Source: Candidatus Eiseniibacteriota bacterium (GTDB lineage: Bacteria > Eisenbacteria > RBG-16-71-46). Taken from it: DNA of 42,292 nt. Below, piece after piece: positions 11,479 to 27,608 of the stretch. Both the position numbers and the translations under genes were made by a program. Each line of letters begins with the position of its first letter. Position 1 is the first letter of the stretch. The stretch covers positions 1 to 42,292 of the forward strand of contig JBGPFC010000034.1 in the NCBI GenBank assembly GCA_041483195.1, read 5' to 3'. The notes under the pieces were generated by a model, which was not told the origin of the DNA, did not search any database, and saw nothing but the letters and a program-made list of their open reading frames with translations.

Positions 11479-11494
11479 AGCAACTGGAGTGCCA
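11479..11494 (-). promoter_or_regulatory. Sigma54 -24/-12 promoter of the acyl-CoA/ndh/cydAB operon
   Basis: Minus strand TGGCACT-CCAG-TTGCT with exact GG-N10-GC spacing, 30 nt before the first start codon. Confidence 0.85.
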
Positions 11495-11594
11495 ACGCTC
11501 CCGACCGCAAACGCGCTCTCGGGAGAGGAGCCTGCCTGCCGTTTGGCTGGCGTGCCGCCCCATGGGCGCGCCGACGACCGGCTGGCTCGGGGCC

Positions 11595-14318
11595 TTAGGG
11601 GGCCGAGTCGGCGGGGAGCGCGAACGAGAACGTGGCGCCCGCTCCGCGAGTGACTTCCGCCCAGAGACTTCCGTGATGCGCCTCGATGATGGAGCGGCTG
11701 ATCGCCAGACCCATGCCCATGCCGTGCGGCTTGGTGCTGTAGAAGGCGTCGAAGAGCCGATCGAGCTCCGTGTCCTTCAGTCCGACGCCGTGATCCTGCA
11801 CGCTCACTGTGACGGCAGGGCGCCCGTCGCGGACGTCGCGGCGCACGCGGATCTCGAGCAGGCGCTCCGACTCGGCAACCGTTGCCATCGCATCCATGGC
11901 GTTCACGACCAGGTTCAGCAGCACCTGCTGCAGCTGCACGCGATCTCCCGCGACGCTCGGCAGGTCCTCGGCGACCTCCGACCGGATCGTCACGCGACGG
12001 CGCGCCGATTCCGCGGCGGCCAGCGCCACGACGTCGTCGACCACGTCCGCGAGCCGCAAGGACGCGGACACAGAGGGCGATCGCGTCGCCATCGAGCGCA
12101 CGCGCTCGATCACGGCGCTCGCACGCACGGCGTCGCTGCTGATGTCCTCGAGCGCCGCGCGCAGCTCTTCGACGTCGGTGGGCTCGTGAGACAGAAACGA
12201 AAGACTGGCGTTGGCGTTGTTGGCGATGGCTGCGAGCGGCTGGTTCACCTCGTGGGCGATCGACGCGGTGAGCTCCCCGAGTGTGGTCACGCGCGTCACG
12301 TGGGCGAGTGCGTCCTGCGCCTCATTCAGCGCCTCCTCCGCGCGCTTGCGCTCGCTCAGGTCGACGATGGTGACGAGCACGCTCTCGAAGCCCGACGACT
12401 CGGGCGGAAGCGCGATCGCGACGAGCGCGTGGATGGTCTCGTTCCGGAGTGTCGTGAGAACGATCTCCTCGACGCTGCGCCGGCCTTCGGCCACCGCGAG
12501 CAGCTGGGAGGCCCAGGCCGCCCGCACCTCGCGCGTAGTGAGTCCGGGCAAGGCGTCCAGGAACTCTTCCTTGCTGGAGGCGCCGAACAAAGCGACCGCG
12601 GCTTCATTGACGTCCTTGATCCCGACGAGGGCGAGTGTCTCGCGCGCGAGCTCCGGATGCTCGGCCAGGTAGCGGCGGAAGTCAGTCACGCCGTGCGACT
12701 TCAGGTCGCCGAGCCGCGCCATCACCTTCGAGAAGTCCTGCTCGACGATGGCAACTCCCACCGTCTGGAAGATGTTCCGATAGCGCAGCTCGCTCTCTCG
12801 CAGCGCCTCCTCGGCGCGCTTGCGCTCGGTCACGTCGATCGTGGTCCCGATGAGCTCGACGGGCCGACCGGCCGCGTCGAGGATCGGATCGACTCGGGAT
12901 TCGATGTAGCGCAGCGTTCCGTCCGGAAGGACGAGTCGCCACTCGGCGCTGTGGCCGATCCTCCCACTGGCCGCCCGCTCGAACTCCGCAGCGACACTCG
13001 GTCGGTCGTCGGGGTGAAAGCGGCTAGTCACCGCCGCCCTCGACGGAATCCCGCCGGCCGGGTCGAATCCGTAGATGCGAAGGATCTCGGGGGACACGTA
13101 GACCAGTTCTCCCGTGTCGAGGTTCTGCGCAAAGCTGCCCGTGTGACTGAGTCGCTGCGCTTCCGACAGCCAAGCCTCGGTTCGCCGGAGCGCCTCCTCC
13201 GCTTCGCGCCGGTCCTGGATGTCGATCCCGATACCCATCCAGCGCGCGATCCGACCTTCGGCGTCGCGAATCGGCCGGCCACGAAGCAGGTGCCAGCGGT
13301 ACTGGCCGTCCGCGGCCCGGCGGAAAGGAGCCTCGTCGTTCCATTCGCCTCCAGATGCGACCGCTTGCCGCCACGACTTCCACAGCCGGCGGCGGTGTTC
13401 GGGGTGTATCGAATCAAGCCCTTCGGTCTCTGGTCGCGTGAGCCCCGTGTACTCGTACCACCATCGGTTGGTGTGCATGTTCAATCCGTCGGCCGACATC
13501 GTCCAAACGATCTGCGGCGACACCTCGATGAGCGCGCGGTAGTGCTCCTCGCTTTCCCGAAGCGCCTCCTCCGCCTCGCGACGGTCCTGGATGTCGATCG
13601 CGATGCCGATCCAGCGAACGATCCGCCCATCGGCGTCACGCATTGGCCTGCTACGAAGCAGGTGCCAGCGGTATTGCCCGTCCGCAGCCCGACGCAGCGG
13701 AGCCTCTTCGACCCATTCGGAGCCCGACGCGACGGTCTGCCGCCAAGACTTCCACATCCGGCGCCGGTGTTCCGGGTGTATGGGCTCGAACCCTTCAGTC
13801 TCCGGGTGCGTGAGCCCCGTGTACTCGTACCACCATTGATTGGCGAAAATGGTCCATCCGTCCGCCGGTGTCGTCCAAACCATCTGCGGCGACACCTCGA
13901 GGAGTGCCCGGTAACGCTCCTCGCTCTCCCGCAGCGTCTCCTCGCTGCGTTTCCGATCCTCGATGTCGATGCTGGATCCGTACCACTTGGCGATGTTCCC
14001 GTGTTCGTCACGCGTCGCGATCTTGTGATGGAGCATCCAGCGGAACGCTCCGTCCGCGCGCCGCACGCGGGCCTCGTGCAGGAAGGGATCCCCGGTGGCC
14101 AACGCCGCGCGCCACGCGCGCAGCATGGCCTCGAGGTCGTCGGGATGGATGAAGGTCGTCCACTTCCATCCGTGCAAGTCTTCCTGTGACCGCCCGACGT
14201 AGGTCAGCCAGGTCCGATTGAAGAAGTCGAGGTGGCCATCGGGCCGACCGGTGTGGATCAGCGCGGGGGCGGATTCGATGGTGAGCTCGAGGTCCAAATC
14301 GGAATCTGGAGTGCCCAC
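11595..14318 (-). CDS. Soluble multi-PAS sensor histidine kinase
   Basis: About five PAS/PAC domains (IHPDD, IHPEH twice, FHPDD); H-box ASIAHEVNQPL; QVLLNLVVNAMDA, DHGVG, FYSTK, GMGMGL; no transmembrane segment. Confidence 0.95.
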   Translation of the reverse strand: MGTPDSDLDLELTIESAPALIHTGRPDGHLDFFNRTWLTYVGRSQEDLHGWKWTTFIHPDDLEAMLRAWRAALATGDPFLHEARVRRADGAFRWMLHHKIATRDEHGNIAKWYGSSIDIEDRKRSEETLRESEERYRALLEVSPQMVWTTPADGWTIFANQWWYEYTGLTHPETEGFEPIHPEHRRRMWKSWRQTVASGSEWVEEAPLRRAADGQYRWHLLRSRPMRDADGRIVRWIGIAIDIQDRREAEEALRESEEHYRALIEVSPQIVWTMSADGLNMHTNRWWYEYTGLTRPETEGLDSIHPEHRRRLWKSWRQAVASGGEWNDEAPFRRAADGQYRWHLLRGRPIRDAEGRIARWMGIGIDIQDRREAEEALRRTEAWLSEAQRLSHTGSFAQNLDTGELVYVSPEILRIYGFDPAGGIPSRAAVTSRFHPDDRPSVAAEFERAASGRIGHSAEWRLVLPDGTLRYIESRVDPILDAAGRPVELIGTTIDVTERKRAEEALRESELRYRNIFQTVGVAIVEQDFSKVMARLGDLKSHGVTDFRRYLAEHPELARETLALVGIKDVNEAAVALFGASSKEEFLDALPGLTTREVRAAWASQLLAVAEGRRSVEEIVLTTLRNETIHALVAIALPPESSGFESVLVTIVDLSERKRAEEALNEAQDALAHVTRVTTLGELTASIAHEVNQPLAAIANNANASLSFLSHEPTDVEELRAALEDISSDAVRASAVIERVRSMATRSPSVSASLRLADVVDDVVALAAAESARRRVTIRSEVAEDLPSVAGDRVQLQQVLLNLVVNAMDAMATVAESERLLEIRVRRDVRDGRPAVTVSVQDHGVGLKDTELDRLFDAFYSTKPHGMGMGLAISRSIIEAHHGSLWAEVTRGAGATFSFALPADSAP
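13200..13943 (-). repeat. Tandem 372-bp PAS-PAC duplication inside the kinase
   Basis: Units 13572-13943 and 13200-13571; identical 29-nt block at 13436-13464 and 13808-13836. Confidence 0.9.
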
Positions 14319-14405: not shown

Positions 14406-15854
14406 TCACGGTCGGGCGAGGTCCCCGGTGCTGAACGCGAAGGCCGCCGACTGAGTCAGCGCCTCCGCGCGCGCGGCCTGGTCGAGCGTGCGCGCGCTGG
14501 CCAGACTTCGCTGAGCCTCGCGGACGTCGGGGAACGTTGCGAGGCCGTGCTGGTAGGACTCGAACGTCGCCCTCCACGACTCCTCCGAAGCCGAGAGCAG
14601 TGCCGCGGCGGCCTTCTGCTTCGCGAGCGCAACCTTGGCATCGTTGTACGCCTTCCACACCTCGCGAACCGCCTTGTCCTTCGCGTGGTCCAGCTCGCTC
14701 TCGGCTTCCTTCTGCACTGACTCGGCGAGGTGGACCTTGTTGCGACGCTCGAAACCGTCGAAGAGGGTCCACTCCAGGCGCAGCCCCGCGTCGTACTGCA
14801 GCTCGTGGACGCCCTGGTAGGCACTGTCCTCGACCTTCAGCTGCCCGATGTTCCCGGCGACCGCCGACCGCGCGAGCAGGCGCGGCCAGTAGTCCGCTCG
14901 AGCTTTGCGCACGTCGGCCTGCTTGGCGCGCACGCTCGCGAGGCGCGCGAGAAGATCGGGCCGCTGCGTCAGCGCGCGGTCGACCGCTTGATCCACTGAC
15001 TCCTCGAGAGCGGACGGCAGGGGCTGCTGTGACACGTCGGCGATCTCGATGGGGGTGCCGGGTCGGATGCCAACGCTCTCGAGCAGGGCCATGCGCGCAT
15101 CCTGTTCTGCCGCGAGGGCATCGTCGAATAGGTAACTCGTGCGCGCGACCTCCTCGCGCGCCTGTAACACTTCGGGCAAGGTCGCGAGCTCGTGCTGCTT
15201 GCGCGCGAGCGCAGCCTCCTCGAGTGTGCGGGCGGAGTCGAGCGCCGCGCGCGCGGCAACGACCTTGCCGCGCGCCGCGCTCAGTGAGTAGAAGTCGCGC
15301 GTGACGGCGAAGACGACTTGCTGCTGCTTTCCGTTGAAGCCGGCGATCGCCTCGATGACCTGCGCCTGAGTCGCGTCGACCAGGGCGCCGCGGCGACCGA
15401 AGTCGAGGAGCACCCACTCCAGGCTGAGGGCCGGGATGACGAACTGGGTGTCCGCCTTGAACACGCCCCCCGGCACCACGGTGGTGGGGATCGGCGCCGG
15501 GGCGTGAGCGACCACGCCGGTCGCCGCCGCGACGAGGGTCGGATAATACGTCCCCTCGGCCAGGCCGGTCGCAATGGCCGCTTGCCGCGCGCGTTCCCAC
15601 GCCATGCGTGTCTCCGGATTGGTGCGCTGGGCCAGGTCGATGAGCTCGTTCGGACCGTACTTCGTCTGCGGATCCACCCGCACCTGGCTGGACGGTCGGG
15701 CGCGCTCCGAGTCACTCAGCGCCGCCGAGTACTTCGGCAGGTCCGGAGCACGCCAGGGCCGATCGGGCGACGGCGGCGCCATCGACAACGGCTCGCGCGC
15801 CGCGCAGCCGCACAAAAACGTCGCAGCGAGAACGATGGCGCGCGCTCGACTCAC
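14406..15854 (-). CDS. TolC/OEP-family outer-membrane efflux lipoprotein
   Basis: LCGC lipobox, ELIDLAQRTNP, W.LLDFG, RPDL..A, WTLFDGF; last gene of the efflux operon. Confidence 0.9.
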   Translation of the reverse strand: MSRARAIVLAATFLCGCAAREPLSMAPPSPDRPWRAPDLPKYSAALSDSERARPSSQVRVDPQTKYGPNELIDLAQRTNPETRMAWERARQAAIATGLAEGTYYPTLVAAATGVVAHAPAPIPTTVVPGGVFKADTQFVIPALSLEWVLLDFGRRGALVDATQAQVIEAIAGFNGKQQQVVFAVTRDFYSLSAARGKVVAARAALDSARTLEEAALARKQHELATLPEVLQAREEVARTSYLFDDALAAEQDARMALLESVGIRPGTPIEIADVSQQPLPSALEESVDQAVDRALTQRPDLLARLASVRAKQADVRKARADYWPRLLARSAVAGNIGQLKVEDSAYQGVHELQYDAGLRLEWTLFDGFERRNKVHLAESVQKEAESELDHAKDKAVREVWKAYNDAKVALAKQKAAAALLSASEESWRATFESYQHGLATFPDVREAQRSLASARTLDQAARAEALTQSAAFAFSTGDLARP

Positions 15855-17791
15855 TGGGCGACCTCGAAGGCGAGCCGTTGGATACGCTGCACGAGCTCGC
15901 GCTCCAGCGGACTCTCGAGCGCAGCGAGCTGAAAGTCGGGGAGAGAGCGCTCTCGGCCCTGCTGCAGGCGATCCGCGATCGCAGTCAGGCTCTCCGCGAC
16001 GGCGGAGTCGAAGCCACTCAAGCGAGCGTCCGTCCGCTGGCTGGCGACCGCGAGCTGCGTCAGCAAGACCGACTGCGCATCGGCGACGGCGCGCTGCGCG
16101 CGTTCACGCGCCTGGTCGCCTGCGCTCGGCTCGAAGGCCGCTTCGTCGGCGGCCTGCTGCGCCGCCGCGAAGTCACGCAGCGCTTGCAGACGCAGGGTCT
16201 CGCCCTCCGTGTTCCCGCTTCCGACGCTGGCCAGCGCCGCCATCGCGCGCAGCCCGGACCCGAAGCTCTTCCAGATCGCCTCCGCCGCGCGAACGGGCCA
16301 GATGAAGTGGAAGACCAACGTGATGACGACGTTGCCGAGCAGGATGCCCAGCAGGCGGTCGCGGATCGTGTCGAAGTGCCACGTCGGCTCGAAGCCCTGG
16401 ATCACGCAGACGTAGAACGCGAACGCGATCTGCACGCCGACGTAGGCGATCCGCGGGCTCCCGACGACGACCCACGCCGCGACCGCCGTGCCGGCTGCGA
16501 CGAGCAAGGCCAGAGAGGTGATCGACTCCATTCGCGGGATCAGGAGCAGGATCGCCGCGAAGCCCATGACCGCGCCGACCAGCGCTCCCGTGATCCGCAG
16601 GCTGCCCTTCTGGATCGTCGCTCCGTCGCTGCCGAGTCCGACGATCAGACAGGTGACGATGCAGGTGCGGATGCCGGGCCAGTCGACGGCGCTCTGCAGG
16701 ACGTAACAGATCATCACGGCGAGCACGCCCTTCAGTGCGTAGTGCAAATGGTCGCGGTTCGTGAACGCGTCCTTCACCAGCCACGCCGGACGCTCCGTTT
16801 CGGAGCCCGTCGCGAGAGCAGTCTTACCCTCCGGCCCGAGCGCCTGCTGCAGCTGGTCGACGGCTTGCTCGAGCTCGTCGACGACGGGCGACACGGCCGA
16901 GGGCTCCGGGCGTTGCCAAGGCTCAGCGGTGCAGCGGGCGTCGAACACGCGGCGCAGGTAGGCGCACTCCGCCGCAATCTGCTCCAAACGCGCCGTCTCG
17001 GGGACCGCGGGCATCCGCTCCAGCGTTGCCGCGGCAGTCACGAAGCGGTCGGACAGCGTGATCAGCGCGCCGTAATGCGCATGGCGCGCTCGGACGGAGG
17101 CGCGCGCGAGCGCCGCGCTCCTCAGCAGGGCGAGCAGCCTCGTGACACCCGCCATCGCGAACGGCCGCGCGCGCTCTTCGACCACGCCGGTCACGCGGCT
17201 CGAGAGTGACTCCTCGGTCGCCCGCAGCCGCTCTCGGATCTCCGCACGAAGCAGCCCCTCGGGATCCGTGGGGACGATGAACAGGTTGGCCGCGACCGCC
17301 GCGGCGATGCCGAGCGCGAAGACCGGCCACAGCCACAGACTTCCGCGGATGGCCAGCTCCGGGACCGGAATGAAGTCGGGCACCGTCAGGATCAACGTGC
17401 CGATCAGGCCGATCACGAAGCCGAGCGCTCCGATCAGGAACGTGCGGCGGAGGAACAGCCCCGCTCCCGCCATCGCCGCGATCAGAACGAAACGCAGCGC
17501 GGGCTGATCCATCGCGATGATGAGGAGCAGGATCGCGAGCGCGAGCCCGACGGTGAGCGCAACCAGGAAGACGATTCCCGTGAGCAGTGTCTGGCTCGAG
17601 TCCTCCATCGCGAAGCGAGTCACGACCCAAACCGACAGATACGCCTCGGGCACGCGCAGAGTCATGCACAGGATCAGCACGGCGACGCAGGCGACCACGA
17701 CGCGGGCCGTGGCGACGCCACGCCCCGGAAACGGCGCGAGCTCCCGGCGCAGAAACGGCTCGATCGTCTGCGCCTGGGCGGAAGGCATCAC
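15851..17791 (-). CDS. FUSC-family (MdtO-like) inner-membrane efflux subunit
   Basis: LRRELAPFPGR, DAFTN.DH..YALK, DWPGIRTC, RDRLLGILLGN; two hydrophobic blocks. Confidence 0.88.
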   Translation of the reverse strand: MMPSAQAQTIEPFLRRELAPFPGRGVATARVVVACVAVLILCMTLRVPEAYLSVWVVTRFAMEDSSQTLLTGIVFLVALTVGLALAILLLIIAMDQPALRFVLIAAMAGAGLFLRRTFLIGALGFVIGLIGTLILTVPDFIPVPELAIRGSLWLWPVFALGIAAAVAANLFIVPTDPEGLLRAEIRERLRATEESLSSRVTGVVEERARPFAMAGVTRLLALLRSAALARASVRARHAHYGALITLSDRFVTAAATLERMPAVPETARLEQIAAECAYLRRVFDARCTAEPWQRPEPSAVSPVVDELEQAVDQLQQALGPEGKTALATGSETERPAWLVKDAFTNRDHLHYALKGVLAVMICYVLQSAVDWPGIRTCIVTCLIVGLGSDGATIQKGSLRITGALVGAVMGFAAILLLIPRMESITSLALLVAAGTAVAAWVVVGSPRIAYVGVQIAFAFYVCVIQGFEPTWHFDTIRDRLLGILLGNVVITLVFHFIWPVRAAEAIWKSFGSGLRAMAALASVGSGNTEGETLRLQALRDFAAAQQAADEAAFEPSAGDQARERAQRAVADAQSVLLTQLAVASQRTDARLSGFDSAVAESLTAIADRLQQGRERSLPDFQLAALESPLERELVQRIQRLAFEVAQ

Positions 17792-17794
17792 GTC

Positions 17795-18832
17795 TCACCC
17801 CGCGGGCCAGCCGCGAATGATCGCGACAGCGGAGCCGCCGACGCGGAAGAGATGCGAGGGCTGCGGATCTTCGATGCGGATGCGCACCGGAAACCGCTGC
17901 GCGATGTGCACCCAGTTCAGCTCGCGGTGGATCACCGGCACGCCCACGGAGAGCGGCTGGTCCTCGGGATTCACCGCCCACCCGATTCCTTGCACGGTCC
18001 CGCGCAGCCGGACCCCGGGATCCGTCAGCAGAAAGATCTCCGCCTCCATTCCGGGGGCGATGTGCTTGAGCTCGGTCTCGCGGAAGTCCGCCAAGACGTA
18101 CCACGCGCGCGTGTCGACGAGCGAGAACACCGGCGCCGGGCCGGGTGAAACGAACTGGCCGATGGCCGTGTTCAAGTTGACGACGAGCGCGTCGAACTCC
18201 GCGCGCACGGAGCAGAAGCCGAGATCCAGCTCGGCCTTCCCGAGCGCGGCTTGCGCGGCGTCGCGCCTCGCGAGCAGCGCGTCGAGATCGCCGACGTCCT
18301 TCTCGGCCTGATCCATCTTGCGCCGCGCCTCGTCGAGCCCCGCCTCTGCCGTCCGCCGGGCGGTGCGCGCCTGGTCGATCTTGTCCGGAGTCACGAACTC
18401 CTTCGACAGCAGCGGCTCGAGTCGCCGGAGGCTGTCGGCCGCGTTCTGTGTCTCCGCCTCCATGCGTTGCACCGCCGCCTTCGCCGCGGCGACCGCGAAC
18501 TGCTGTCCGTCGATCCGCCGCTGCGTGACCTCGATCTCGCCGTCGAGCGCCGCGACCTCGGCGCGCGCGCGCCGGACCGCGAGCTCGTACGGGCGCGGGT
18601 CGATCAGGAACAGCAGGTCGCCGCGCTTCACGAGCTGGTTGTCCGCGACGTGCAGCTCGACGATCGTCCCACTCACCTGCGGGACGACACCGATGATGTT
18701 CGCCATCACGATCGCGTCGTCGGTCTGCGGATGCCGTTCGACCCTCAGCAGAGCCACGAAGCCGAGAATGAGCGCGCCCGCGACGATACCGAGGGCGACG
18801 AGTCTTTTTGGTGCGACACGCGCTGGGCGCAT
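17795..18832 (-). CDS. mdtN: HlyD-family membrane fusion protein (MdtN-like)
   Basis: PQTDDA, VSGTI.EL.V.DNQ.VKRGDLLF.IDPRPY, A.FRETEL, NWVHIAQRFPVRI. Confidence 0.9.
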   Translation of the reverse strand: MRPARVAPKRLVALGIVAGALILGFVALLRVERHPQTDDAIVMANIIGVVPQVSGTIVELHVADNQLVKRGDLLFLIDPRPYELAVRRARAEVAALDGEIEVTQRRIDGQQFAVAAAKAAVQRMEAETQNAADSLRRLEPLLSKEFVTPDKIDQARTARRTAEAGLDEARRKMDQAEKDVGDLDALLARRDAAQAALGKAELDLGFCSVRAEFDALVVNLNTAIGQFVSPGPAPVFSLVDTRAWYVLADFRETELKHIAPGMEAEIFLLTDPGVRLRGTVQGIGWAVNPEDQPLSVGVPVIHRELNWVHIAQRFPVRIRIEDPQPSHLFRVGGSAVAIIRGWPAG

Positions 18833-18833
18833 G

Positions 18834-19068: not shown

Positions 19069-19084
19069 AGCAACGAGCATGCCG
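19069..19084 (-). promoter_or_regulatory. Sigma54 -24/-12 promoter of the ytcA efflux operon
   Basis: Minus strand CGGCATG-CTCG-TTGCT, GG-N10-GC, 26 nt before the ytcA start. Confidence 0.75.
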
Positions 19085-20751: not shown

Positions 20752-20754
20752 GAG

Positions 20755-21645
20755 CTACGAGTGACTGAGGGCGTGGATCTCGGCGATGTAGCCGCCAGGA
20801 AATTGCACGATCGCGGCCCGGCGCTCCGCGCTGGCATAGGGCTCGACCAACACCGTCGCCCCGACAGCCTTGGCCTTTGTGAGTGTCGCATCGAGATCGG
20901 AGACTTCATACCCGGTGAGCTCCCGGCCGTACGGCCACGGGAGTTGGCCGTCGGTCACCAGCACCGTGAGCTTGCCGAAGCGAGACTCGATGCGGATGCG
21001 CCGGTGCGTCTCGCCGGGCCGGCCGATCTCGTCGCCGGCCGCCTTCGCGTCGTCTTGGGTGACCTTCCCGTGCGCGAAGCATGTGAAGCCACGGACGAAC
21101 GCCTCGACGCGGCCGGGAGACACGTACACGCGGTTCTCGGGCACGGTCGCGAGCTTCTCGTACGACGGCGCGGTCGTGTGCCAGTACAGCTGCATGTTGA
21201 CGCCGCCCGGCCACTGGATCACTGCGTCGCGCCCGATCGGATCGTCGAATGGGGCGACCAGCAGGTCGGCGCCACAGGCCTGCGCGGCGCGCACGGCGCC
21301 GTCGAGCTCCGTCACGAGATAGCCCGTCCGCTCCAACCCGAACGGATACGGGATCGGCGTCTTGAAGCCGAACACCGAGAACGTCCCCGCCGGCGTGAGC
21401 ACGAGCTGTGACATCGTCTGGCTCGGCGTCGGCGTGACCGTGAAGACGCCCTGCTTCGAAGTCGTGCCGCCGAACGTCGCGACGAGACTTGCAACGAAGC
21501 GATCGAAGTCCTCCGGCGCGACGTAGATGTGAGTCGTGTCGAACTGCGCGCCGACTGCGACCTCGGGCGTTTCGGCGGACGCGATCCCGGCGCAGTACAG
21601 GGCCGCTGTCAGCGCGAGCGCGCCGAGAGACCGATGCAAGCTCAT
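20755..21645 (-). CDS. Secreted VOC/glyoxalase-family protein
   Basis: Signal peptide; GAQFDTTHIYV, PYPFG.ERTGYLV, QWPGGVNMQLYWH, FPGGYIAEIH (two VOC halves). Confidence 0.8.
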   Translation of the reverse strand: MSLHRSLGALALTAALYCAGIASAETPEVAVGAQFDTTHIYVAPEDFDRFVASLVATFGGTTSKQGVFTVTPTPSQTMSQLVLTPAGTFSVFGFKTPIPYPFGLERTGYLVTELDGAVRAAQACGADLLVAPFDDPIGRDAVIQWPGGVNMQLYWHTTAPSYEKLATVPENRVYVSPGRVEAFVRGFTCFAHGKVTQDDAKAAGDEIGRPGETHRRIRIESRFGKLTVLVTDGQLPWPYGRELTGYEVSDLDATLTKAKAVGATVLVEPYASAERRAAIVQFPGGYIAEIHALSHS

Positions 21646-21678: not shown

Positions 21679-21694
21679 AGCAAGTCGCATGCCT
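21679..21694 (-). promoter_or_regulatory. Sigma54 promoter (leftward, glyoxalase-porin)
   Basis: Minus strand AGGCATG-CGAC-TTGCT, GG-N10-GC. Confidence 0.7.
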
Positions 21695-21818: not shown

Positions 21819-21834
21819 TGGCACGTTCACTGCA
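21819..21834 (+). promoter_or_regulatory. Sigma54 promoter (rightward, amidohydrolase operon)
   Basis: TGGCACG-TTCA-CTGCA, GG-N10-GC, 38 nt before the ATG at 21873. Confidence 0.78.
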
Positions 21835-21872
21835 TCGCGCCCCGTCGTATAGACTACGACGAAGAAGAAGCC

Positions 21873-23624
21873 ATGGCACAGTTGGTGATCCGCAACGGCC
21901 GCTTCGCGACGGGCGACAACATTTCGGGTCGCGCGGAAGCCGTCGCGATCGACGGCGGAAGGTTCATCGCGGTCGGCAGCGAGCGCGAGGTCCTCGCGCA
22001 GTGCGGCCCCGACACGCGCACCATCGACCTGGGCGGGCGGCTCGGGCTCCCGGGGCTCAATGACTCGCACCTCCACGCCATCCGCGGCGGGCTCAACTAC
22101 AACATGGAGCTGCGCTGGGACGGCGTGCCGTCGCTGGCGGACGCGCTCCGCCGGCTCCGCGAGCAGGCGCAGCGCACGCCGCCGCCGCAGTGGGTGCGCG
22201 TGATCGGCGGCTGGAACGAGTGGCAGTTCGCCGAGCGGCGGCTGCCGACGCTGGCCGAGCTGAACGAGGTCGCGCCCGAGACCCCCGTCTTCGTGCTGTA
22301 CCTGTACGGGCTCGCGCTCTTGAACGGTGCCGCGTTGCGCGCCGTCGGCTACACGAAGGACACGCCGGACCCGGTCGCCGGCCAGATCGAGCGCGATCAT
22401 GCCGGCAACCCGACCGGACTCCTGCTCGCGAAGCCGAACGCGAACATCCTCTACTCGACGCTCGCGAAGGGCCCGAGGCTCTCGCCCGACGATCAGCGCA
22501 ATTCGACGCTCCACTTCATGCGCGAGCTGAACCGGCTCGGGCTGACCAGCGTGATCGACGCGGGCGGCGGCTTCCAGAACTACCCCGACGACTACGCGGT
22601 GATCGAGTCACTGCACGCCGAGCGCAAGCTCACGCTGCGCATCGCCTACAACCTGTTCACACAGCGGCCGAAGCAGGAGCTCGACGACTTCCGGCGCTGG
22701 ACCAGACTGGCGAAGCCGGGGCAAGGCGACGGCTTCTATCGGTTGAACGGCGCGGGCGAAATGCTGGTGTTCTCGGCGGCGGATTTCGAGGACTTCCTGG
22801 AGCCGCGCCCGGACCTTCCCGCGTCGCTCGAGTCCGAGCTGGAGGCCGTCGTGCGCCATCTCGCCGAGCAGCGCTGGCCGTTCCGGATCCACGCGACCTA
22901 CGACGAGTCGATCGCGCGCTTCCTCGACGTGTTCGAGCGAGTAAACCGCGACGTGCCGTTCGACGGCCTGCGCTGGTTCTTCGACCACGCGGAGACGATC
23001 TCGGAGCGCAGCCTGGAGCGGACCCGCGCGCTGGGCGGCGGCATCGCCGTGCAGGACCGGATGGCGTTCCAGGGTGAGTCGTTCATCCAGCGCTACGGTG
23101 CGGAGCGCGCCGCGCAGTCGCCGCCGATCCGGCGCATGCTGGACCTCGAAATCCCCGTTGGCGCAGGCACCGACGCGACGCGCGTGTCGAGCTTCAACCC
23201 GTGGATCGCCCTGCACTGGCTGGTGAGCGGGAAGACCGTCGGCGGCACAGCCCTCTACGGCGAAGCCAATCGGCTCTCGCGCGAGCAGGCGCTGCGCCTG
23301 TACACGTCGGGCAGCGCCTGGTTCTCGGGCGAGGAGCGCGAGAAGGGCGCGATCGCCGTGGGTCAGTACGCCGACCTGTGCGTGCCGACCGCCGACTACT
23401 TCGCGGTGCCCGAGGCCGAGATTCCGCGGCTCGAGTCTCTGCTCACCGTCGTGAACGGCGAGGTCGTGCACGGCACTGGACCGTTCGCCGCGCTCGCACC
23501 CCCGTTGCCCCCGGTCTCGCCGGGCTGGTCGCCGGTCGCGACCTACGGCGGATACACGTCTCCGAAGGCGCGAGACCCGCGCCGCACACCGGCCTGGGGC
23601 GGCTGCGGCTGCGCGGTCCTATAG
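21873..23624 (+). CDS. Amidohydrolase 3 family (YtcJ-like) metal-dependent hydrolase
   Basis: PGLNDSHLH, RGGLNYNMELRWDGV, RIHATY, FDHAE, GAGTDATRV. Confidence 0.93.
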   Translation: MAQLVIRNGRFATGDNISGRAEAVAIDGGRFIAVGSEREVLAQCGPDTRTIDLGGRLGLPGLNDSHLHAIRGGLNYNMELRWDGVPSLADALRRLREQAQRTPPPQWVRVIGGWNEWQFAERRLPTLAELNEVAPETPVFVLYLYGLALLNGAALRAVGYTKDTPDPVAGQIERDHAGNPTGLLLAKPNANILYSTLAKGPRLSPDDQRNSTLHFMRELNRLGLTSVIDAGGGFQNYPDDYAVIESLHAERKLTLRIAYNLFTQRPKQELDDFRRWTRLAKPGQGDGFYRLNGAGEMLVFSAADFEDFLEPRPDLPASLESELEAVVRHLAEQRWPFRIHATYDESIARFLDVFERVNRDVPFDGLRWFFDHAETISERSLERTRALGGGIAVQDRMAFQGESFIQRYGAERAAQSPPIRRMLDLEIPVGAGTDATRVSSFNPWIALHWLVSGKTVGGTALYGEANRLSREQALRLYTSGSAWFSGEEREKGAIAVGQYADLCVPTADYFAVPEAEIPRLESLLTVVNGEVVHGTGPFAALAPPLPPVSPGWSPVATYGGYTSPKARDPRRTPAWGGCGCAVL

Positions 23625-23626
23625 GC

Positions 23627-24160
23627 ATGGGCGAGCCGGTCAAGATCGTGCTGCAGCGCCGCGCCCGGCCCGGGTCCGGCAAGGCCTTCGACGCCTGGGT
23701 CCGCGCGCTGCTGCAGTCCGCGCCCGCCCTCGAGGGCTCGAGCGTGATCGCCGCCGAGGGCGGCAGTCACTTCATCCTGCTGCGCTTCGCGAGCCAGGCC
23801 GATCTCGACCGGTGGCAGGCGTCGCCCCAGGTGCGCGAGCTGCTCCGGCGCGAAGACGAATTCGCGGAGGACCCGGGCGCCCCGGTCGTGCACTCCGGCT
23901 TCGAGACCTGGTTCGCGTTGCCAGGGCGCGCGTCCGACAAGCCGCCTGCGAACTGGAAGATCGCGCTCGTGACCTGGGTCGCGCTCTTCCCTCAGGTCGT
24001 GCTTCTCGCCTACCTGATCCCTCCGCAGGTCCCGTTCCTGCTCAGCGCGGTGCTCTCGACGGTGATTCCCGTCTCCGCGCTGACGTGGGTCGTGATGCCG
24101 CGCCTGACCGTGTGGCTCCGGCGTTGGCTGTACCCAACCCCGATCGAACACAAGGAGTAA
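23627..24160 (+). CDS. Antibiotic-biosynthesis-monooxygenase-like domain membrane protein
   Basis: RARPG..AFDAW, LRFAS..DLDRW.ASP, SGFETWF, PPANWK.ALVTW, TWVVMPRLT. Confidence 0.75.
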   Translation: MGEPVKIVLQRRARPGSGKAFDAWVRALLQSAPALEGSSVIAAEGGSHFILLRFASQADLDRWQASPQVRELLRREDEFAEDPGAPVVHSGFETWFALPGRASDKPPANWKIALVTWVALFPQVVLLAYLIPPQVPFLLSAVLSTVIPVSALTWVVMPRLTVWLRRWLYPTPIEHKE

Positions 24161-24162
24161 CC

Positions 24163-24864
24163 ATGGCCAAGTCCCGCAAGCTCGCCAAGCGCAGCGAGAA
24201 GGGGCTCCTCACGCCCGACAACTGCGTCGTCACGCTGATCGATCTGCAGCCGCAGATGCTGTTCGGCGTGTCGAGCTTCGATCGCCAGATGATCATCAAC
24301 AACAACGTTGCGCTCTCGAAGGCCGCGCGCGTCTTCGACGTGCCGGTGGTCCTTTCGACCGTCGAGACCGAATCGTTCTCCGGGAGGATGTGGCCGCAGA
24401 TCGAGGCCGTGTTTCCCGGCCAGAAGCCGGTCGAGCGCAGCAGCATGAACGCGTGGGACGATGCGAGCTTCGTGGCCGCCATCCAGAAGACAGGCCGCAA
24501 GAAGATCGTGCTCGCCGGCCTTTGGACCGAGACATGCGTCGCGCTGCCGACGATCCAGGCGCTCCACGACGGGTTCGAGATCTACGTGGTCGAGGACTGC
24601 TGTGGCGACGTCTCCGCCCTCGCCCACGACAACGCGATGCGGCGCGTGGTGCAGGCCGGCGCGGTGCCGGTGACTTCGCTGTCGGTCATGCTCGAGTTAC
24701 AGCGTGACTGGGCGCAGAAGGACACCTACGACGCCGTGATGGACATCGTGAGGTCGCACTACGGCGCGTACGGGGTCGGCGTCGAGTACTGCTACACGAT
24801 GGTGCACAAGGCGCCGCCCACGAAGTTCCCGGAGTACGTCGTGCCGGAGGCGAGTCATGCGTAG
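24163..24864 (+). CDS. ycaC: YcaC-like isochorismatase-family cysteine hydrolase
   Basis: LLTPDNC..LIDLQPQM, ERSSMNAW, AGLWTETC, ELQRDW; AAGGAG RBS. Confidence 0.92.
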   Translation: MAKSRKLAKRSEKGLLTPDNCVVTLIDLQPQMLFGVSSFDRQMIINNNVALSKAARVFDVPVVLSTVETESFSGRMWPQIEAVFPGQKPVERSSMNAWDDASFVAAIQKTGRKKIVLAGLWTETCVALPTIQALHDGFEIYVVEDCCGDVSALAHDNAMRRVVQAGAVPVTSLSVMLELQRDWAQKDTYDAVMDIVRSHYGAYGVGVEYCYTMVHKAPPTKFPEYVVPEASHA

Positions 24865-25294
24865 CGCGCTCGGAGGCGAGCGCTGGCTCGCGCGCGAGGC
24901 GACCGCGATGGCGCCGTTCGCCGTCTTCGCCGCGCGCTTCTGCATCGCGCTGATCTTCCTCGCGAACGGGCTTGGCATCGTCGATCAGACGCGCGCGGCG
25001 AGCGAGCTCGCCGCCCACGGAATGCCCGAAGCACTCGTGCCCGCGTTCATGCTCGGCGGGCGAGCGCTTCAGATCGCGGCGGGCGCGGCGCTCGTGATCG
25101 GCTTCCACGAGCGGCTCGCCGCGCTGGCGCTCGCGGCATTCCTCGTGCCGGCGACGTTGGTCGCCCACGACTTCTGGGCGTCTCCCGAGGCGGAGCGCGG
25201 AGCACAGCTCGTGAACTTCCTCAAGAACACGGCGATGCTGGGCGGTCTTCTCTTCGTTGCTTTCCGGCCCGGAACGCGGCGTGCGTCGAGTTGA
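24857..25294 (+). CDS. DoxX-family membrane protein
   Basis: R..IALIF, R.AAL.LA.FL...T...H.FW, FLKN.AM.GGLL. Confidence 0.88.
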   Translation: MRSALGGERWLAREATAMAPFAVFAARFCIALIFLANGLGIVDQTRAASELAAHGMPEALVPAFMLGGRALQIAAGAALVIGFHERLAALALAAFLVPATLVAHDFWASPEAERGAQLVNFLKNTAMLGGLLFVAFRPGTRRASS

Positions 25295-25352: not shown

Positions 25353-25994
25353 ATGAGCGAAGACGCAATCGTCTTCGTCGTCGACGACGACGCGTCCGTG
25401 CGCCGCTCGACAGAGCGCTTGGTGCGTCCGCTCGGCTTCGCGGTCCAGACCTTCGCCTCGGCGCAGGAATTCCTCGACGGCGCCCGGCTGGGAAGGCCCG
25501 GCTGTCTCGTGCTCGACATCCACATGCCACGTCTGAGCGGGCTCGACCTGCAGCGGGAGCTCTTGGGCCGGGGCATCGAGATCCCGATCGTCTTCCTCAC
25601 CGGTCGCGGCGACATCCCGACGACCGTGCGCGCGATGAAGGCGGGCGCGGTGGAGTTCCTGACGAAGCCGGTCAAGGGCCGCGACTTGCTCGCCGCAATC
25701 CGCGCCGCGATCGAGCGCGGACGAGTCTCGCACCAGGCGCGGCTCGAGGTCGAGGCGTTGCGCGAGCGCTACGAACGACTCACGCCGCGCGAGCGTGAGG
25801 TGCTGACACTCGTCGCTGCCGGCCTGCTCAACAAGCAGATCGCCGGAGAGCTCGCGGCCTCGGAGCGGACCGTCAAGTTCCACCGCGCGCACGTCATGAA
25901 GAAGATGCAGGCGAAGTCGCTCGCGGAGCTCGTGCGGATGGTGGAGCGGCTCGGGCCGCAGAACGGCAGCGAACCTGTTCCGACGGACAGGTAG
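25353..25994 (+). CDS. FixJ/NodW-type response regulator (REC + LuxR HTH)
   Basis: VVDDD, LVLDIHMP, FLTG.GD, FLTKP, LTPREREV, NKQIA, TVKFHR. Confidence 0.95.
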   Translation: MSEDAIVFVVDDDASVRRSTERLVRPLGFAVQTFASAQEFLDGARLGRPGCLVLDIHMPRLSGLDLQRELLGRGIEIPIVFLTGRGDIPTTVRAMKAGAVEFLTKPVKGRDLLAAIRAAIERGRVSHQARLEVEALRERYERLTPREREVLTLVAAGLLNKQIAGELAASERTVKFHRAHVMKKMQAKSLAELVRMVERLGPQNGSEPVPTDR

Positions 25995-26050
25995 GCGGCT
26001 GCACCAAGAGTCAGCTGCGCGGCCACCCCTGTGAACGCCACTCTCTGCGC

Positions 26051-26470
26051 ATGGTGATGCGCTCGAAGAGTGAGGTCCCGCTCGTCGCGATCGTCGATGA
26101 CGACGCCTCCGTGCGACAGTCGACCGTCCGGCTGGTCCGCTCGTTCGGCTATCGCACGGAGGTCTTCGGCTCGGGACCGGAGTTCCTGGGCTCCGGAGCG
26201 GCGGACCGCGCAGCGTGTCTCTTGCTCGACGTGCGTATGCCCGGGATGAACGGCCTGGAGGTCCAGCGCAGTCTGGCGGAGCGCGGCGCGCGCCTTCCGA
26301 TCGTGTTCCTCACGGGCCGGGCCAGCGACGAGGAGGAGCGCCGCGCCCGGTCCGCGGGTGCCGCCGAGTTTCTGCGAAAGCCCGTCGTACAGGCGAGCCT
26401 GCGCGCGGCGATCGAAACCGTCATCCGAGCGACTGCTCGAGGAGATCGCGATGACAATGGAGGTTCGTGA
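26051..26470 (+). CDS. Single-domain response regulator receiver
   Basis: IVDDD, LLLDVRMPGMNG, FLTG, FLRKP; no output domain. Confidence 0.92.
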   Translation: MVMRSKSEVPLVAIVDDDASVRQSTVRLVRSFGYRTEVFGSGPEFLGSGAADRAACLLLDVRMPGMNGLEVQRSLAERGARLPIVFLTGRASDEEERRARSAGAAEFLRKPVVQASLRAAIETVIRATARGDRDDNGGS

Positions 26471-27608
26471 GATGGCCGAGAACGCGGCGAGCCGCTCTAC
26501 ACCTTACGGTGTCGGGCTCCGGTCGCTGGTGCCTGATTCGCCCGCGCTCCCCAGCTTCGCGGTGGGCCTCGCCCCGGTAAGGGAGCTGGACGTGCAAGAC
26601 GGCGGACTCGTCGGTGCGTCGGCCGCGCTTGAGGCGGCGCTCGCGCGCGCGCACAAGGTCGCCCCGACCGAGTCCAGCGTGCTCGTCACAGGTGAGACAG
26701 GGACGGGCAAGGAGCTCCTTGCGCGCGCCATCCACAAGTGGTCGCGCCGCGCCGGCGGGCCCTTCGTAAGCGTCAACTGCGGCGCGGTTCCTGCCGCTCT
26801 GATTGCCTCGGAGCTGTTCGGCCACGAGCGGGGCGCGTTCACGGGAGCGGTGCAGCGGCGGCGCGGTCGCTTCGAGCTCGCGGCGGGGGGGACCCTCTTT
26901 CTGGACGAGGTCGGCGAGCTGCCGATGGAGACACAGGTGCTCCTCCTGCGCGTGCTGCAGGAGCGCGAGTTCGAGCGGGTCGGAGGCACGGCGTCGCTGT
27001 CGACCGACGTCCGCGTCGTCGCAGCCACGAACCGCGATCTCCAGCGCGCGATCGCCGACGGGCGCTTCCGCAGCGATCTCTTCTATCGACTCGCCGTCTT
27101 CCCCGTCGAGATGCCGCCGCTGCGCAAGCGCGAGGGAGACATCCCGTTGCTCGTCGAGCACTTCGCCCGGCGCTCGGCCCGGAAGCTCGGCAAGTCGATC
27201 CGTAGCATCGACCCAGAGGCTCTGCGCCGGCTCGAGGCATATCCGTGGCCGGGCAATGTGCGCGAGCTGCAGAACGTGATTGAGCGCTCCGTCATCGTCT
27301 GCGAGTCCGAGACGTTGACGTTGGACTCGAGCTGGCGCGAGAACAACACTGCGCCCGACGAGCCGAACGCAGACTCGCGGTCGGCCGAACCGGAGTCGCG
27401 CTCGTTGGAGTCAGTCTCGGAGCACGAGTCGTCCGGGGCACCGACGCTCGCCGAAGTCCAGCGCGGGGCGATCCTGCGGGCACTTCGGTCGTGCAACGGG
27501 ATGATCGGCGGTCCCCGCGGCGCGGCTGCGCAGCTGGGGCTCAAGCGGACCACGCTTCAGGCGCGCATGAAGAAGCTCGGGCTCCCCCGGGCGCGGCCGG
27601 CGACATGA
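26451..27608 (+). CDS. Sigma54-dependent enhancer-binding protein (FhlA-like AAA+ and HTH) lacking an N-terminal sensor domain
   Basis: GETGTGKE, ELFGHERGAFTGA, LFLDEVG, RSDLFYRL, WPGNVRELQN, GAAAQLGLKRTTL; only ~50 aa precede the AAA+ domain. Confidence 0.93.
   Translation: MTMEVREMAENAASRSTPYGVGLRSLVPDSPALPSFAVGLAPVRELDVQDGGLVGASAALEAALARAHKVAPTESSVLVTGETGTGKELLARAIHKWSRRAGGPFVSVNCGAVPAALIASELFGHERGAFTGAVQRRRGRFELAAGGTLFLDEVGELPMETQVLLLRVLQEREFERVGGTASLSTDVRVVAATNRDLQRAIADGRFRSDLFYRLAVFPVEMPPLRKREGDIPLLVEHFARRSARKLGKSIRSIDPEALRRLEAYPWPGNVRELQNVIERSVIVCESETLTLDSSWRENNTAPDEPNADSRSAEPESRSLESVSEHESSGAPTLAEVQRGAILRALRSCNGMIGGPRGAAAQLGLKRTTLQARMKKLGLPRARPAT

Follow-up and report, generated by a model that had tools for sequence, protein, structure and literature searches.

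Mobile elements that carry catabolic sigma-54 operons together with their own enhancer-binding protein, and that depend on the rpoN of the host, are known from the TOL plasmid pWW0 (XylR with Pu and Ps) and from pVI150 (DmpR with Po). In rhizobia, the FixL-FixJ-NifA system combines a PAS kinase, a FixJ regulator and a sigma-54 activator in one circuit; its outputs include the high-affinity oxidase cbb3, and NifA has a GAF domain. PspF and HrpR/HrpS have no N-terminal regulatory domain, and their regulators PspA and HrpV act in trans.

The locus described here comes from an uncultured sediment bacterium. The window, i.e., the whole stretch of DNA that was analysed, is 42,292 nucleotides long. 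As with XylR and DmpR, sigma-54-promoter operons are accompanied by an activator gene and would rely on the rpoN of the host. The carrier is a tRNA-integrated island instead of a plasmid, and whereas XylR and DmpR sense their effector directly through an N-terminal V4R/A domain, the island activator has no sensory domain and is adjoined by a PAS kinase and two receivers. The “undescribed system” of the initial annotation was too strong a term, since sigma-54 regulons that travel on mobile elements together with an activator of their own are already known (XylR, DmpR, HrpR/S). With FixL-FixJ-NifA the locus shares a FixL-type kinase core, a regulator made of a receiver and a GerE domain, and a sigma-54 activator. 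The oxidase is bd and not cbb3, the regulator and the kinase score below the FixJ and FixL equivalog cut-offs, the activator has no GAF domain, there is an additional gene, for a lone receiver, that overlaps the one for the activator, and no nif or fix genes are present here. The absence of an N-terminal regulatory domain recalls PspF and HrpR/HrpS, but there the trans regulators are PspA and HrpV and not a phosphorylatable receiver; psp and hrp genes are absent here, and the activator reaches 294.7 bits against the PspF models, under the NCBIfam cut-off of 443.55. The logic of a receiver, an AAA+ domain and an HTH with an upstream kinase is that of the NtrB-NtrC family, with the difference that the receiver and the AAA+ domain are encoded as two polypeptides, both on the island and in four or more other loci, and that the receiver is of the FixJ type and not of the NtrC type. 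We propose that the window may contain a self-contained sigma-54 regulon, with its own activator and sensor genes, on a 37-kb tRNA-Phe island, a reading to which we give about an even chance.

The island is delimited by a tRNA gene and a repeat of its 3' half:
1678..1753, plus strand: tRNA-Phe(GAA), left border (attL-like), found with ARAGORN
1709..1754, plus strand: copy 1 of a 46-nt direct repeat, corresponding to the 3' half of tRNA-Phe (repeat search, family D5)
38769..38814, plus strand: copy 2 of the 46-nt direct repeat, right border (attR-like), 45/46 identical to copy 1

The island spans positions 1755-38814 (37 kb), and the island of the initial annotation is borne out as real and bounded by the tRNA-Phe at one end and the 45/46-identical repeat at the other. 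The GC content of the region was 66–69%, compared with 70.0 ± 2.2% for the genome, and its tetranucleotide distance lay between the 94th and 97th percentiles. Integrase and recombinase Pfam families were absent from the 89 long ORFs across the window, and also from 55 out of 83 listed stop-to-stop ORFs in the segments 27.4–29.4 and 33.9–39.3 kb. Broken fragments of SDR and hydrolase genes at 34–37 kb suggest decay, and the island is probably no longer mobile. A DNA synteny search among congeners gave only paralog-level or single-gene matches and did not demonstrate an empty tRNA-Phe site. The flanks of the contig showed no synteny to congeners and its composition is atypical, so the contig may be mis-binned. 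The key island genes were not detected in the 205 other genomes of the phylum, and homologs with 59–83% identity were found in Acidobacteriota and in soil contigs.

Four non-regulatory operons were recognized:
1904..11449, minus strand: operon 1, on a single strand with small gaps or overlaps (Pfam, NCBIfam)
14406..19043, minus strand: operon 2, YtcA-family small protein, MdtN-like membrane-fusion protein, MdtO/FUSC-like pump and outer-membrane factor (Pfam, NCBIfam)
19330..21645, minus strand: operon 3, secreted two-module VOC-fold protein (20755-21645) and Alginate_exp-family porin (19330-20751) (Pfam, AF2, Foldseek)
21873..25294, plus strand: enzyme part of operon 4, Amidohydro_3 hydrolase, unknown 177-aa protein, YcaC-like isochorismatase-family hydrolase and DoxX membrane protein (Pfam, NCBIfam)

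In the order of transcription, the first half of operon 1 encodes a 3-hydroxyacyl-CoA dehydrogenase, an acyl-CoA dehydrogenase, an enoyl-CoA hydratase, a family III CoA-transferase and a further enoyl-CoA hydratase; the second half encodes a beta-propeller protein (LDL-receptor class B / SGL-like), a Pyr_redox_2 flavoprotein and subunits I and II of cytochrome bd. Operon 2 has the gene order of E. coli ytcA-mdtNOP and aaeXAB (small YtcA/AaeX-like protein, membrane-fusion protein, FUSC-family pump, outer-membrane factor), but its scores are far under the equivalog cut-offs (MdtO model, 280.7 bits with a cut-off of 821 for the pump; AaeX model, 20.1 with a cut-off of 82 for the small protein; NCBIfam), and it differs in being preceded by a sigma-54 promoter. 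The first protein of operon 3 (296 aa) had been annotated as a periplasmic VOC enzyme. Its Pfam Glyoxalase_4 score of 23.5 bits is under the cut-off of 27; the VOC fold is supported by the AF2 model (pLDDT 76.8), which shows paired beta-alpha-beta-beta-beta modules, and by Foldseek matches to 3oxh (E 1.3e-13) as well as to HPPD and hydroxymandelate synthase. The VOC gene was found in none of the 30 relatives and in one of the 206 genomes of the phylum, namely that of the host. Across the 600 matched stretches, 578 relatives of this gene were confirmed.

The initial annotation had proposed a co-occurrence analysis across genomes, and cargo of different operons was found together elsewhere: orthologs from operons 1, 3 and 4 are clustered in L139, L222, L228 and L251. 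In L222, the flavoprotein and the acyl-CoA dehydrogenase orthologs each have their own sigma-54-type sites. This joint recurrence would fit one functional programme. The cluster of amidohydrolase, secreted VOC protein and porin, often with the YcaC-like hydrolase, is common in soil metagenomes. A description of the cargo cluster did not emerge from those portions of the literature that our search covered. The DoxX and VOC pairs of the Bacillus MhqR/CatDE quinone response may be a parallel to the island cargo; the literature search gave no confirmation.

Each operon was preceded by a candidate promoter:
11479..11494, minus strand: P1, sigma-54-type promoter TGGCACTCCAGTTGCT, consensus score 11/12
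19069..19084, minus strand: P2, sigma-54-type promoter CGGCATGCTCGTTGCT, consensus score 10/12
21679..21694, minus strand: P3, sigma-54-type promoter AGGCATGCGACTTGCT, consensus score 10/12
21819..21834, plus strand: P4, sigma-54-type promoter TGGCACGTTCACTGCA, consensus score 11/12

The scores refer to the 12 defined positions of TGGCACG-N4-TTGCW, which we take to be the sigma-54 promoter consensus. All four sites are intergenic and point at a gene whose start codon, accompanied by a Shine-Dalgarno-like run, is 25–38 nt away. Direct reading of the sequence placed P1 29 nt from ATG 11449 (the 3-hydroxyacyl-CoA dehydrogenase gene), P2 25 nt from ATG 19043 (the YtcA-family gene), P3 33 nt from ATG 21645 and P4 38 nt from ATG 21873; the sites that had been reported before the first genes of the operons are therefore where they were said to be. 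The claim that every non-regulatory operon between 1.9 and 25.3 kb has one such site also held for 4/4 operons on the gene map (Pfam, NCBIfam).

The bare GG-N10-GC pattern, which the initial annotation had used as evidence, occurs at chance level (815 matches versus 857.7 expected; 96 of 100 shuffles reach 815). This, together with the score of only 10/12 for two of the sites, would agree with P1–P4 being chance matches and the operons being transcribed from sigma-70-type or other promoters, an explanation that we regard as very improbable. The longer GGCA-N6-TTGC has five matches in the window versus 0.90 expected, a count that 0/100 shuffles reached; three are sites of the initial annotation and two belong to one palindrome within the outer-membrane efflux gene. 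The pattern GGCAY-N5-YTGCW, defined post hoc, likewise has five matches versus 0.51 expected (0/100 shuffles). Four are P1–P4, and the fifth, at 35265-35279 on the minus strand, lies within a DSBA-like ORF; it is a point in favour of chance matches, and is itself probably one. About 0.02 chance matches were estimated for the zones of roughly 60 nt before gene starts, against the four observed. Genome-wide, GGCAY-N5-YTGCW has 46 matches, five of them on this contig, which makes up 1% of the genome. When one mismatch at most was allowed, 67 of the 110 genomic matches to TGGCAC-N5-TTGC fell outside coding interiors, although the unmasked share of the genome is only 22%, which indicates that the organism uses this consensus. 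A scan of 9000-28800 returned no sigma-70-like promoter, which is weak evidence against the chance explanation, and no terminator at the operon ends. The locus L200 also argues against it: its ortholog (79%) of the VOC gene has a divergent pair of sigma-54-like sites in front, as on the island. A self-trained weight matrix, in which P1 and P2 had low ranks, drifted to background sequence rich in GC; it was replaced by the fixed-consensus counts. As for the sigma factor, the absence of which from the host had been named as fatal to the proposal, rpoN was found as a single copy in the genome (213.6 bits, profile search) and also in G511, the second MAG with the island. From their sequence and position, P1–P4 are very likely functional sigma-54 promoters.

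Candidate activator-binding elements were found in two of the upstream regions:
11537..11567, plus strand: candidate element, pair of TGCCG-N7-GGC sites with 16-nt spacing, located 43-73 nt upstream of P1
21713..21765, plus strand: candidate element, pair of TGCCG-N7-GGC sites with 38-nt spacing, in the interval from which P3 and P4 diverge

The TGCCG-N7-GGC element was defined post hoc from the window, and over the whole window it is not enriched (8 sites versus 4.9 expected; 11 of 100 shuffles); a looser form gave 25 matches versus 22.9 expected. Four of the eight sites lie within 229 nt (upstream of P1 plus between P3 and P4). True tandem pairs are found only five times in 4.17 Mb, and two of them are the P1 and P3/P4 elements; the other three have no sigma-54 site scoring at least 10/12 within 300 nt. 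The second site of the P3/P4 element lies within a block conserved in L200. P2 has one degenerate copy only. The first unbiased searches of the three upstream regions gave shared k-mers and palindromes that were not above shuffles. Counts of TGCCG/CGGCA half-sites did not discriminate, at least two being present upstream of 33 of 205 sigma-54-like sites. The TGTC-N8-GACA (TGT-N10-ACA) element of L044 and L046 has 8 matches versus 16.3 expected, none of them near P1–P4.

The local activator would probably serve at least P1, P3 and P4. It could instead serve P3 and P4 only, with P1 and P2 controlled by activators encoded elsewhere, so that the promoters would be of the sigma-54 type and yet form no single regulon. 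The genome contains 22 full sigma-54 activator genes, and P2 is without a good copy of the candidate element. In L222, L269 and L274, orthologous cargo is located behind sigma-54 promoters with a quite different, GAGAAATTCGCGA-type upstream element, which also favours separate control. Against it, P1 and P3/P4 share a tandem element whose pairs are very rare in the genome, and P1–P4 are all located within one bounded island whose activator and VOC gene have no orthologs in the 30 relatives searched. We consider separate control improbable. The 21 further activators of the genome could serve some of P1–P4, which speaks against the preferred reading of a single local regulon.

The regulatory genes are located behind operons 2 and 4:
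11595..14318, minus strand: soluble sensor kinase with four PAS domains, HisKA and HATPase_c (Pfam)
25353..25994, plus strand: FixJ/LuxR-type response regulator, receiver and GerE (Pfam)
26051..26470, plus strand: single-domain receiver, FixJ-like (Pfam, alignment)
26451..27608, plus strand: sigma-54 enhancer-binding protein without a sensory domain (Pfam, alignment)

All four proteins of the initial annotation (enhancer-binding protein, FixJ-type regulator, lone receiver and soluble multi-PAS kinase) were recovered with Pfam, the kinase having four PAS domains. The kinase gene is 87 nt downstream of operon 2 on the same strand. The kinase core is FixL-like (PDB 8a3u/4gcz, FixL kinase chimeras, E 3e-46), with 304.8 bits against the FixL equivalog, under the cut-off of 850 (NCBIfam); the first PAS match begins at residue 15, which leaves no room for an N-terminal membrane domain. 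The FixJ/LuxR-type regulator scored 206.7 bits against NCBIfam FixJ, under the cut-off of 255. In the lone receiver, the acidic pocket, the phospho-Asp and the Lys are conserved in all five aligned cassettes, and the Thr is replaced by Val in L038. The receiver has an ORF of its own, in a frame different from that of the activator, whose start overlaps the receiver stop by 20 nt. The activator matched PF00158 (Sigma54_activat) with 237.9 bits; GETGTGKE, FLDEVGE and GAFTGA were read and Walker A/B are kept. Its AAA+ domain is preceded by 52 non-conserved residues and no fused receiver, which is not the NtrC-type architecture, and its C-terminus gave an HTH_8 match of 20.6 bits, below the cut-off of 22, in a segment that can be aligned with relatives.

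The same cassette recurs, also in other phyla. L034, L038, L044 and L046 each encode the kinase, the FixJ/LuxR regulator, the lone receiver and the domain-less activator in separate ORFs; in L034 the activator start overlaps the receiver gene end as on the island, and a sigma-54 site lies behind the activator gene in L044 and L046. From tblastn and open-frame lengths, L157 and L179 seem to have this arrangement too. As far as our search reached into the literature, no description was found of a lone receiver gene that overlaps, or stands immediately before, the gene of a domain-less activator. Among the 79 nearest activator loci, the majority have a stretch of about 140 aa, as long as a receiver, in front of the AAA+ domain. 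In L151, L160 and L178 the lone receiver precedes an activator that retains its own receiver, so the lone receiver is not simply a detached domain. In L033 and L039 a domain-less activator stands with a LuxR-type two-component pair and without a lone receiver, which speaks against the preferred reading of trans control. A sigma-54 “site” at 15730 in L033 was a false positive inside a coding sequence, and the isochorismatase gene of L033 is preceded only by a weak GG-N10-GC (7/12).

These arrangements bear on the order of signalling. In a serial cascade of the FixLJ-NifA type, the order given in the initial annotation, the kinase would act on the FixJ-type regulator, which would drive transcription of the genes for receiver and activator; the activator would be constitutively active once made, and the lone receiver would be a phosphate sink or buffer. 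The FixL/FixJ-like kinase core and both receivers agree with this order, and the LuxR/FixJ-type two-component pair precedes six of the ten complete domain-less activators among the 79 nearest loci, two of them without a lone receiver. AAA+ cores of NtrC1/DctD-type activators are active once the regulatory domain is removed, and in Sinorhizobium nifA is driven by FixJ, both of which count for a cascade. The gaps between the DoxX, FixJ-like and receiver genes are only 56–58 nt, however, and a promoter-like site was not found there, while P4 can already transcribe the regulator genes. A sink role would also leave the overlap of the receiver and activator genes and their constant adjacency unexplained. 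We consider the serial cascade unlikely, albeit a serious competitor.

In the preferred model, host RNA polymerase with sigma-54 would bind the four -24/-12 promoters, and the closed complexes would be opened by the island's own AAA+ activator, bound upstream of P1 and in the P3–P4 interval to the tandem TGCCG-N7-GGC sites, and upstream of P2 to the degenerate site. P1 would drive acyl-CoA oxidation, the flavoprotein and cytochrome bd; P2 the YtcA-MdtNOP-type efflux and probably also the PAS kinase gene behind it; P3 the secreted VOC-fold protein and the porin; and P4 the two hydrolases and DoxX, with read-through into the three regulator genes. The circuit would be self-reinforcing because regulator genes are located downstream of P2 and P4. 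The input is proposed to come from the FixL-like four-PAS kinase phosphorylating two FixJ-like receivers. The lone receiver would act on the activator in trans, the pair forming a split NtrC-type regulator, and the FixJ/LuxR-type regulator would be a parallel DNA-binding branch. The trans action is a tentative proposal, with less than an even chance. The earlier interpretation, a kinase-to-activator cascade co-inducing uptake, transformation, respiration and export, is supported in part, by the credible sigma-54 promoters, rpoN, the bounded island, the recurring cassette, the VOC fold and the co-recurring cargo; its serial order is doubtful, control of all four promoters by the local activator is tentative, and a detoxification role would be speculative.

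A broader and still more speculative version, which we consider rather unlikely as a whole, is that a split NtrC-type activator has the lone receiver as its detachable regulatory domain. A single FixL-like kinase would feed two receivers, one leading through a LuxR-type HTH to sigma-70 transcription and the other gating a sigma-54 AAA+ motor in trans. The cassette of four genes would bring its promoters and binding sites along, as a plug-in controller moving between phyla and usable in any rpoN-positive host. Here it would be wired to a widespread soil-bacterial module (YcaC-like hydrolase, Amidohydro_3, secreted VOC protein, porin, DoxX, flavoprotein and cytochrome bd) for a quinone-like or aromatic amide compound.

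The island would represent a compact and testable case of a whole sigma-54 regulon, with promoters, probable binding sites, activator, kinase and receivers, moving horizontally into a new host. It also hints at a recurrent signalling layout, in which a FixL-like kinase and a FixJ-type regulator accompany a lone receiver gene beside a sensor-less activator gene. The cargo draws attention to a gene cluster that is common in soil metagenomes. If the receiver does act in trans, this would be a new mode of control of AAA+ activators.

The 37-kb island most likely carries a sigma-54 regulon of its own, with four operons predicted to be under an island-encoded activator that lacks a sensor domain. 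Direct reading confirmed the sequences and positions of the four promoter sites proposed in the initial annotation:

P1, TGGCACTCCAGTTGCT, positions 11494–11479, minus strand, 29 nt from the ATG (11449) of a 3-hydroxyacyl-CoA dehydrogenase gene
P2, CGGCATGCTCGTTGCT, positions 19084–19069, minus strand, 25 nt from the ATG (19043) of a YtcA-family gene
P3, AGGCATGCGACTTGCT, positions 21694–21679, minus strand, 33 nt from the ATG (21645) of the gene of a secreted VOC-fold protein
P4, TGGCACGTTCACTGCA, positions 21819–21834, plus strand, 38 nt from the ATG (21873) of an Amidohydro_3 hydrolase gene

The GG-N10-GC criterion that had been applied to these sites was uninformative in the window (G+C 67.6%), with 815 matches compared to 857.7 expected. 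Unlike this bare pattern, the extended sigma-54 consensus is informative in the window. GGCA-N6-TTGC was found five times for 0.90 expected (at least five in 0 of 100 shuffles), corresponding to P1, P2, P3 and one intragenic palindrome counted twice. The post-hoc pattern GGCAY-N5-YTGCW also had five matches, for 0.51 expected (0 of 100 shuffles): P1–P4 and a fifth at 35265–35279 within a DSBA-like ORF. Genome-wide it matched 46 times, five of these in the window contig, which makes up 1% of the genome. The genome-wide promoter counts relied on our own crude gene call, covering 84% of the genome, and on masked coding interiors amounting to 78% of the genome. With GG and GC fixed, four of the five perfect TGGCAC-N5-TTGC sites fell outside coding interiors, as did 63 of the 105 sites with one mismatch; with two mismatches the proportion was that of the background (348 of 1415). 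Since perfect and one-mismatch sites are mostly non-coding and two-mismatch sites are at background, this consensus is in use by the host, with roughly 50–80 such promoters in the genome.

The host assembly (4.17 Mb in 93 contigs, the window being the entire contig C34) contains one copy of rpoN, on whose presence the initial annotation had made its regulon depend. The sigma-54 interaction domain gave 26 matches in the assembly, 22 of them strong and full-length, and activator homologs were present in all 31 genomes of the order searched. rpoN is also present in G511, a second MAG with the island DNA. The gene map, based on Pfam and NCBIfam searches, is as follows:

P1 operon, minus strand, nine-gene run: 3-hydroxyacyl-CoA dehydrogenase, acyl-CoA dehydrogenase, enoyl-CoA hydratase, family III CoA-transferase, second hydratase, beta-propeller (LDL-receptor class B/SGL-like repeats), Pyr_redox_2 flavoprotein, cytochrome bd subunits I and II
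P2 operon: YtcA, MdtN-like fusion protein, MdtO/FUSC-like pump, outer-membrane factor
Kinase gene with four PAS domains, 87 nt beyond the P2 operon on the same strand
P3 operon: 296-aa protein with a signal-peptide-like N-terminus, then an Alginate_exp-family porin
P4 operon: Amidohydro_3, uncharacterised 177-aa protein, YcaC-like isochorismatase-family hydrolase, DoxX
Regulators downstream of DoxX, in order: FixJ/LuxR-type regulator, lone receiver (preceded by gaps of 58 and 56 nt, respectively), activator

The early assignment of the 296-aa protein to the VOC enzymes is backed by its fold. The AF2 model (pLDDT 76.8, from 14 sequences) retrieved Rv0577 (3oxh, E 1.3e-13) first in Foldseek, with 4-hydroxyphenylpyruvate dioxygenases and hydroxymandelate synthases next. 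Further island genes, at 29363–34005, encode a PPK2 polyphosphate kinase and the components of an Mla-type ABC system (MlaE, ATPase, MlaD and an auxiliary lipoprotein); the motif scan of the window found no sigma-54-type site before these genes. The core of the PAS kinase is FixL-like (match to PDB FixL-core chimeras, E 3e-46). Within the kinase gene there is a 300 nt direct repeat (13175–13474 and 13547–13846, 82% identical), and two of the PAS domains seem to have been duplicated recently.

In the proposed mechanism, the activator would turn on the P1–P4 operons and would itself be controlled by the FixL-like kinase via two FixJ-like receivers. Only 52 non-conserved residues precede the AAA+ domain of the activator; its Walker A/B and GAFTGA motifs are intact and its HTH_8 match is slightly below the cut-off. 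Its ATG (26451) lies 20 nt ahead of the receiver stop codon, in a different frame. In the reading that we tentatively favour, the lone receiver would act on the activator in trans. The main rival, which we consider only slightly less likely, is a serial cascade in the FixLJ-NifA order, where the FixJ-type regulator would control the synthesis of a constitutively active activator, as opposed to control by the receiver in trans. The overlap of the activator start with the receiver gene is also seen in a Candidatus Binatia MAG (L034), where the four cassette genes (kinase, regulator, receiver and activator) are separate ORFs, 57–62% identical. They are also separate in three Acidobacteriaceae MAGs (L038, L044, L046), and this recurrence shows that the receiver/activator split is no assembly error. 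Across the cassettes, the lone receiver measures 126–156 aa and the activator without N-terminal domain about 350–425 aa. The acidic pocket, phospho-acceptor Asp and Lys of the receiver are kept in all five aligned cassettes, and the Thr is replaced by Val in L038.

The 79 nearest activator loci, counted without the truncated L028, include 11 whose AAA+ domain is preceded by under 120 residues. L047, one of the 11, is interrupted by the end of its contig; four of the remaining ten possess the cassette, and in L033 and L039 its place is taken by a Reg_prop kinase, a LuxR-type regulator and an uncharacterised 159-aa protein. Of the 301 genomes sampled from the L033 class, 48 had matches to FixJ-like receivers. 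Among the 30 loci inspected from these 48 genomes, the cassette was repeated in L157 and L179, and in L151, L160 and L178 a lone receiver stood ahead of an activator retaining its own receiver. The literature search, with sources available in part, found no published description of the cassette layout. L044 (about 11145–11160) and L046 (alignment A2, columns 176–195) have a TGT-N10-ACA-type palindrome, TGTCATTCCATTGACA, some 125 nt ahead of a sigma-54 site following the cassette. The next ORF starts with MWIVR (1096 aa in L044) and may encode an RND-type pump.

Upstream of the promoters, the first searches revealed no shared words or palindromes above chance. A 4.3-kb soil contig, L200, with VOC (79%) and porin (70%) orthologs, shows a divergent sigma-54-like pair, CGGCACGTCGATTGCG on the minus strand and CGGCACTCTTCTTGCT on the plus strand, the latter 33 nt upstream of the VOC ortholog ATG. 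The two sites are spaced by 133 nt, compared to 125 nt between P3 and P4, and one inter-promoter block, TG(C/T)CG-N6-(C/T)GGCA, is conserved between L200 and the window. TGCCG-N7-GGC showed no overall excess over chance in the window (eight matches, 4.9 expected), and four of the eight sites form two tandem pairs, one 43–73 nt upstream of P1 and one between P3 and P4. Among 630 matches genome-wide, there were only five true tandem pairs within 60 nt, including these two; no sigma-54-like site of at least 10/12 was found within 300 nt of the other three. P2 has a single degenerate copy, 110 nt upstream. As the pattern is post hoc, we regard it as a candidate activator-binding site only.

All described promoters, operons and regulators are enclosed by a tRNA-Phe(GAA) gene (1678–1753) and a direct repeat of its 3' half (1709–1754 and 38769–38814, 45 of 46 nt identical), and this 37-kb segment is an integrated genomic island. 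No integrase gene was found among the Pfam-searched island ORFs, and SDR and hydrolase genes in the right-end 5 kb are reduced to fragments; together these features make the island look immobilised. Overlapping ORFs, two truncated short-chain dehydrogenase pieces and an Abhydrolase_3 C-terminal piece at 33977–37124 look like decay or frameshifts. Searches for the VOC gene found it in none of 30 relatives and, across 206 phylum genomes, in the host alone; 16 of the 301 genomes sampled from the L033 class have it, at 59–74% identity. The isochorismatase-family gene and the amidohydrolase are 78–83% and 65% identical, respectively, to Acidobacteriota and soil copies. The 30 relatives contained no activator ortholog (top match 58%, little above the host's own best paralog at 52%). 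The contig has a G+C of 66–69%, compared to 70.0 ± 2.2% for the genome, and its four 10-kb windows all lie at the 94th–97th percentile of tetranucleotide distance. The contig flanks showed no synteny with congeners and G511 contains the same DNA (about 100% identity, over three contigs), so that the binning is not certain. The left-flank cyclophilin gene (1–1760) is better matched in a sister family of the order (nine of nine genomes; the six best 69–71% over about 420 nt) than in its own genus (none of three at the same threshold); because of this affinity and the atypical composition, mis-binning is possible. The 30-relative and congener-synteny tallies, and perhaps the phylum VOC tally, include an unpublished genome (G020), on which the conclusions do not depend.

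The cargo was surveyed in the best 80 metagenome loci out of 578 confirmed VOC-gene relatives (600 matched stretches). Among these 80, a same-family porin lies downstream of the VOC gene in 42 of 48 loci with room, and an Amidohydro_3 homolog upstream in 25 of 28. The co-occurrence check across genomes suggested at the outset was positive, orthologs of P1-operon genes joining the VOC cluster in some loci: DoxX (68%), flavoprotein (73%) and acyl-CoA dehydrogenase (65%) occur in the L222 cluster, a flavoprotein ortholog (77%) in L251, and cytochrome bd subunits in L139, L200, L228 and L249. DoxX and VOC proteins may be linked with quinone or catechol detoxification. The flavoprotein and dehydrogenase orthologs of L222 each have a sigma-54-type site (11/12 or 10/12), and a 10/12 site lies about 220 nt upstream of the isochorismatase ortholog in L269 and L274. 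A near-identical promoter, TGGCCGGCACCTTGCT and variants, precedes orthologs of these three island genes (L222 at 4926, 5770 and 7202; L269 at 6806 and 19560; L274 at 6320), with GAGAAAT(T/C)(T/C)GCGA and CAATAGAAC elements conserved 20–70 nt upstream. Since this upstream element differs from that of the window, a different activator family probably acts there, and these loci would represent a second, distinct sigma-54 wiring of the same cargo. In G511, a paralog of the amidohydrolase-to-DoxX operon (L190, G511:C18:27199-33620, 77% identical), absent from the window's own assembly, adjoins a large, unrelated regulator-like gene and lacks a good sigma-54 site.

The island system, at first put forward as undescribed, is not categorically new: it is a variant of an already known kind, the mobile sigma-54 regulon that encodes its own activator. 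The recurrence of the clusters with differing upstream elements and regulators argues that the cargo is a conserved functional unit whose regulatory wiring differs between lineages.
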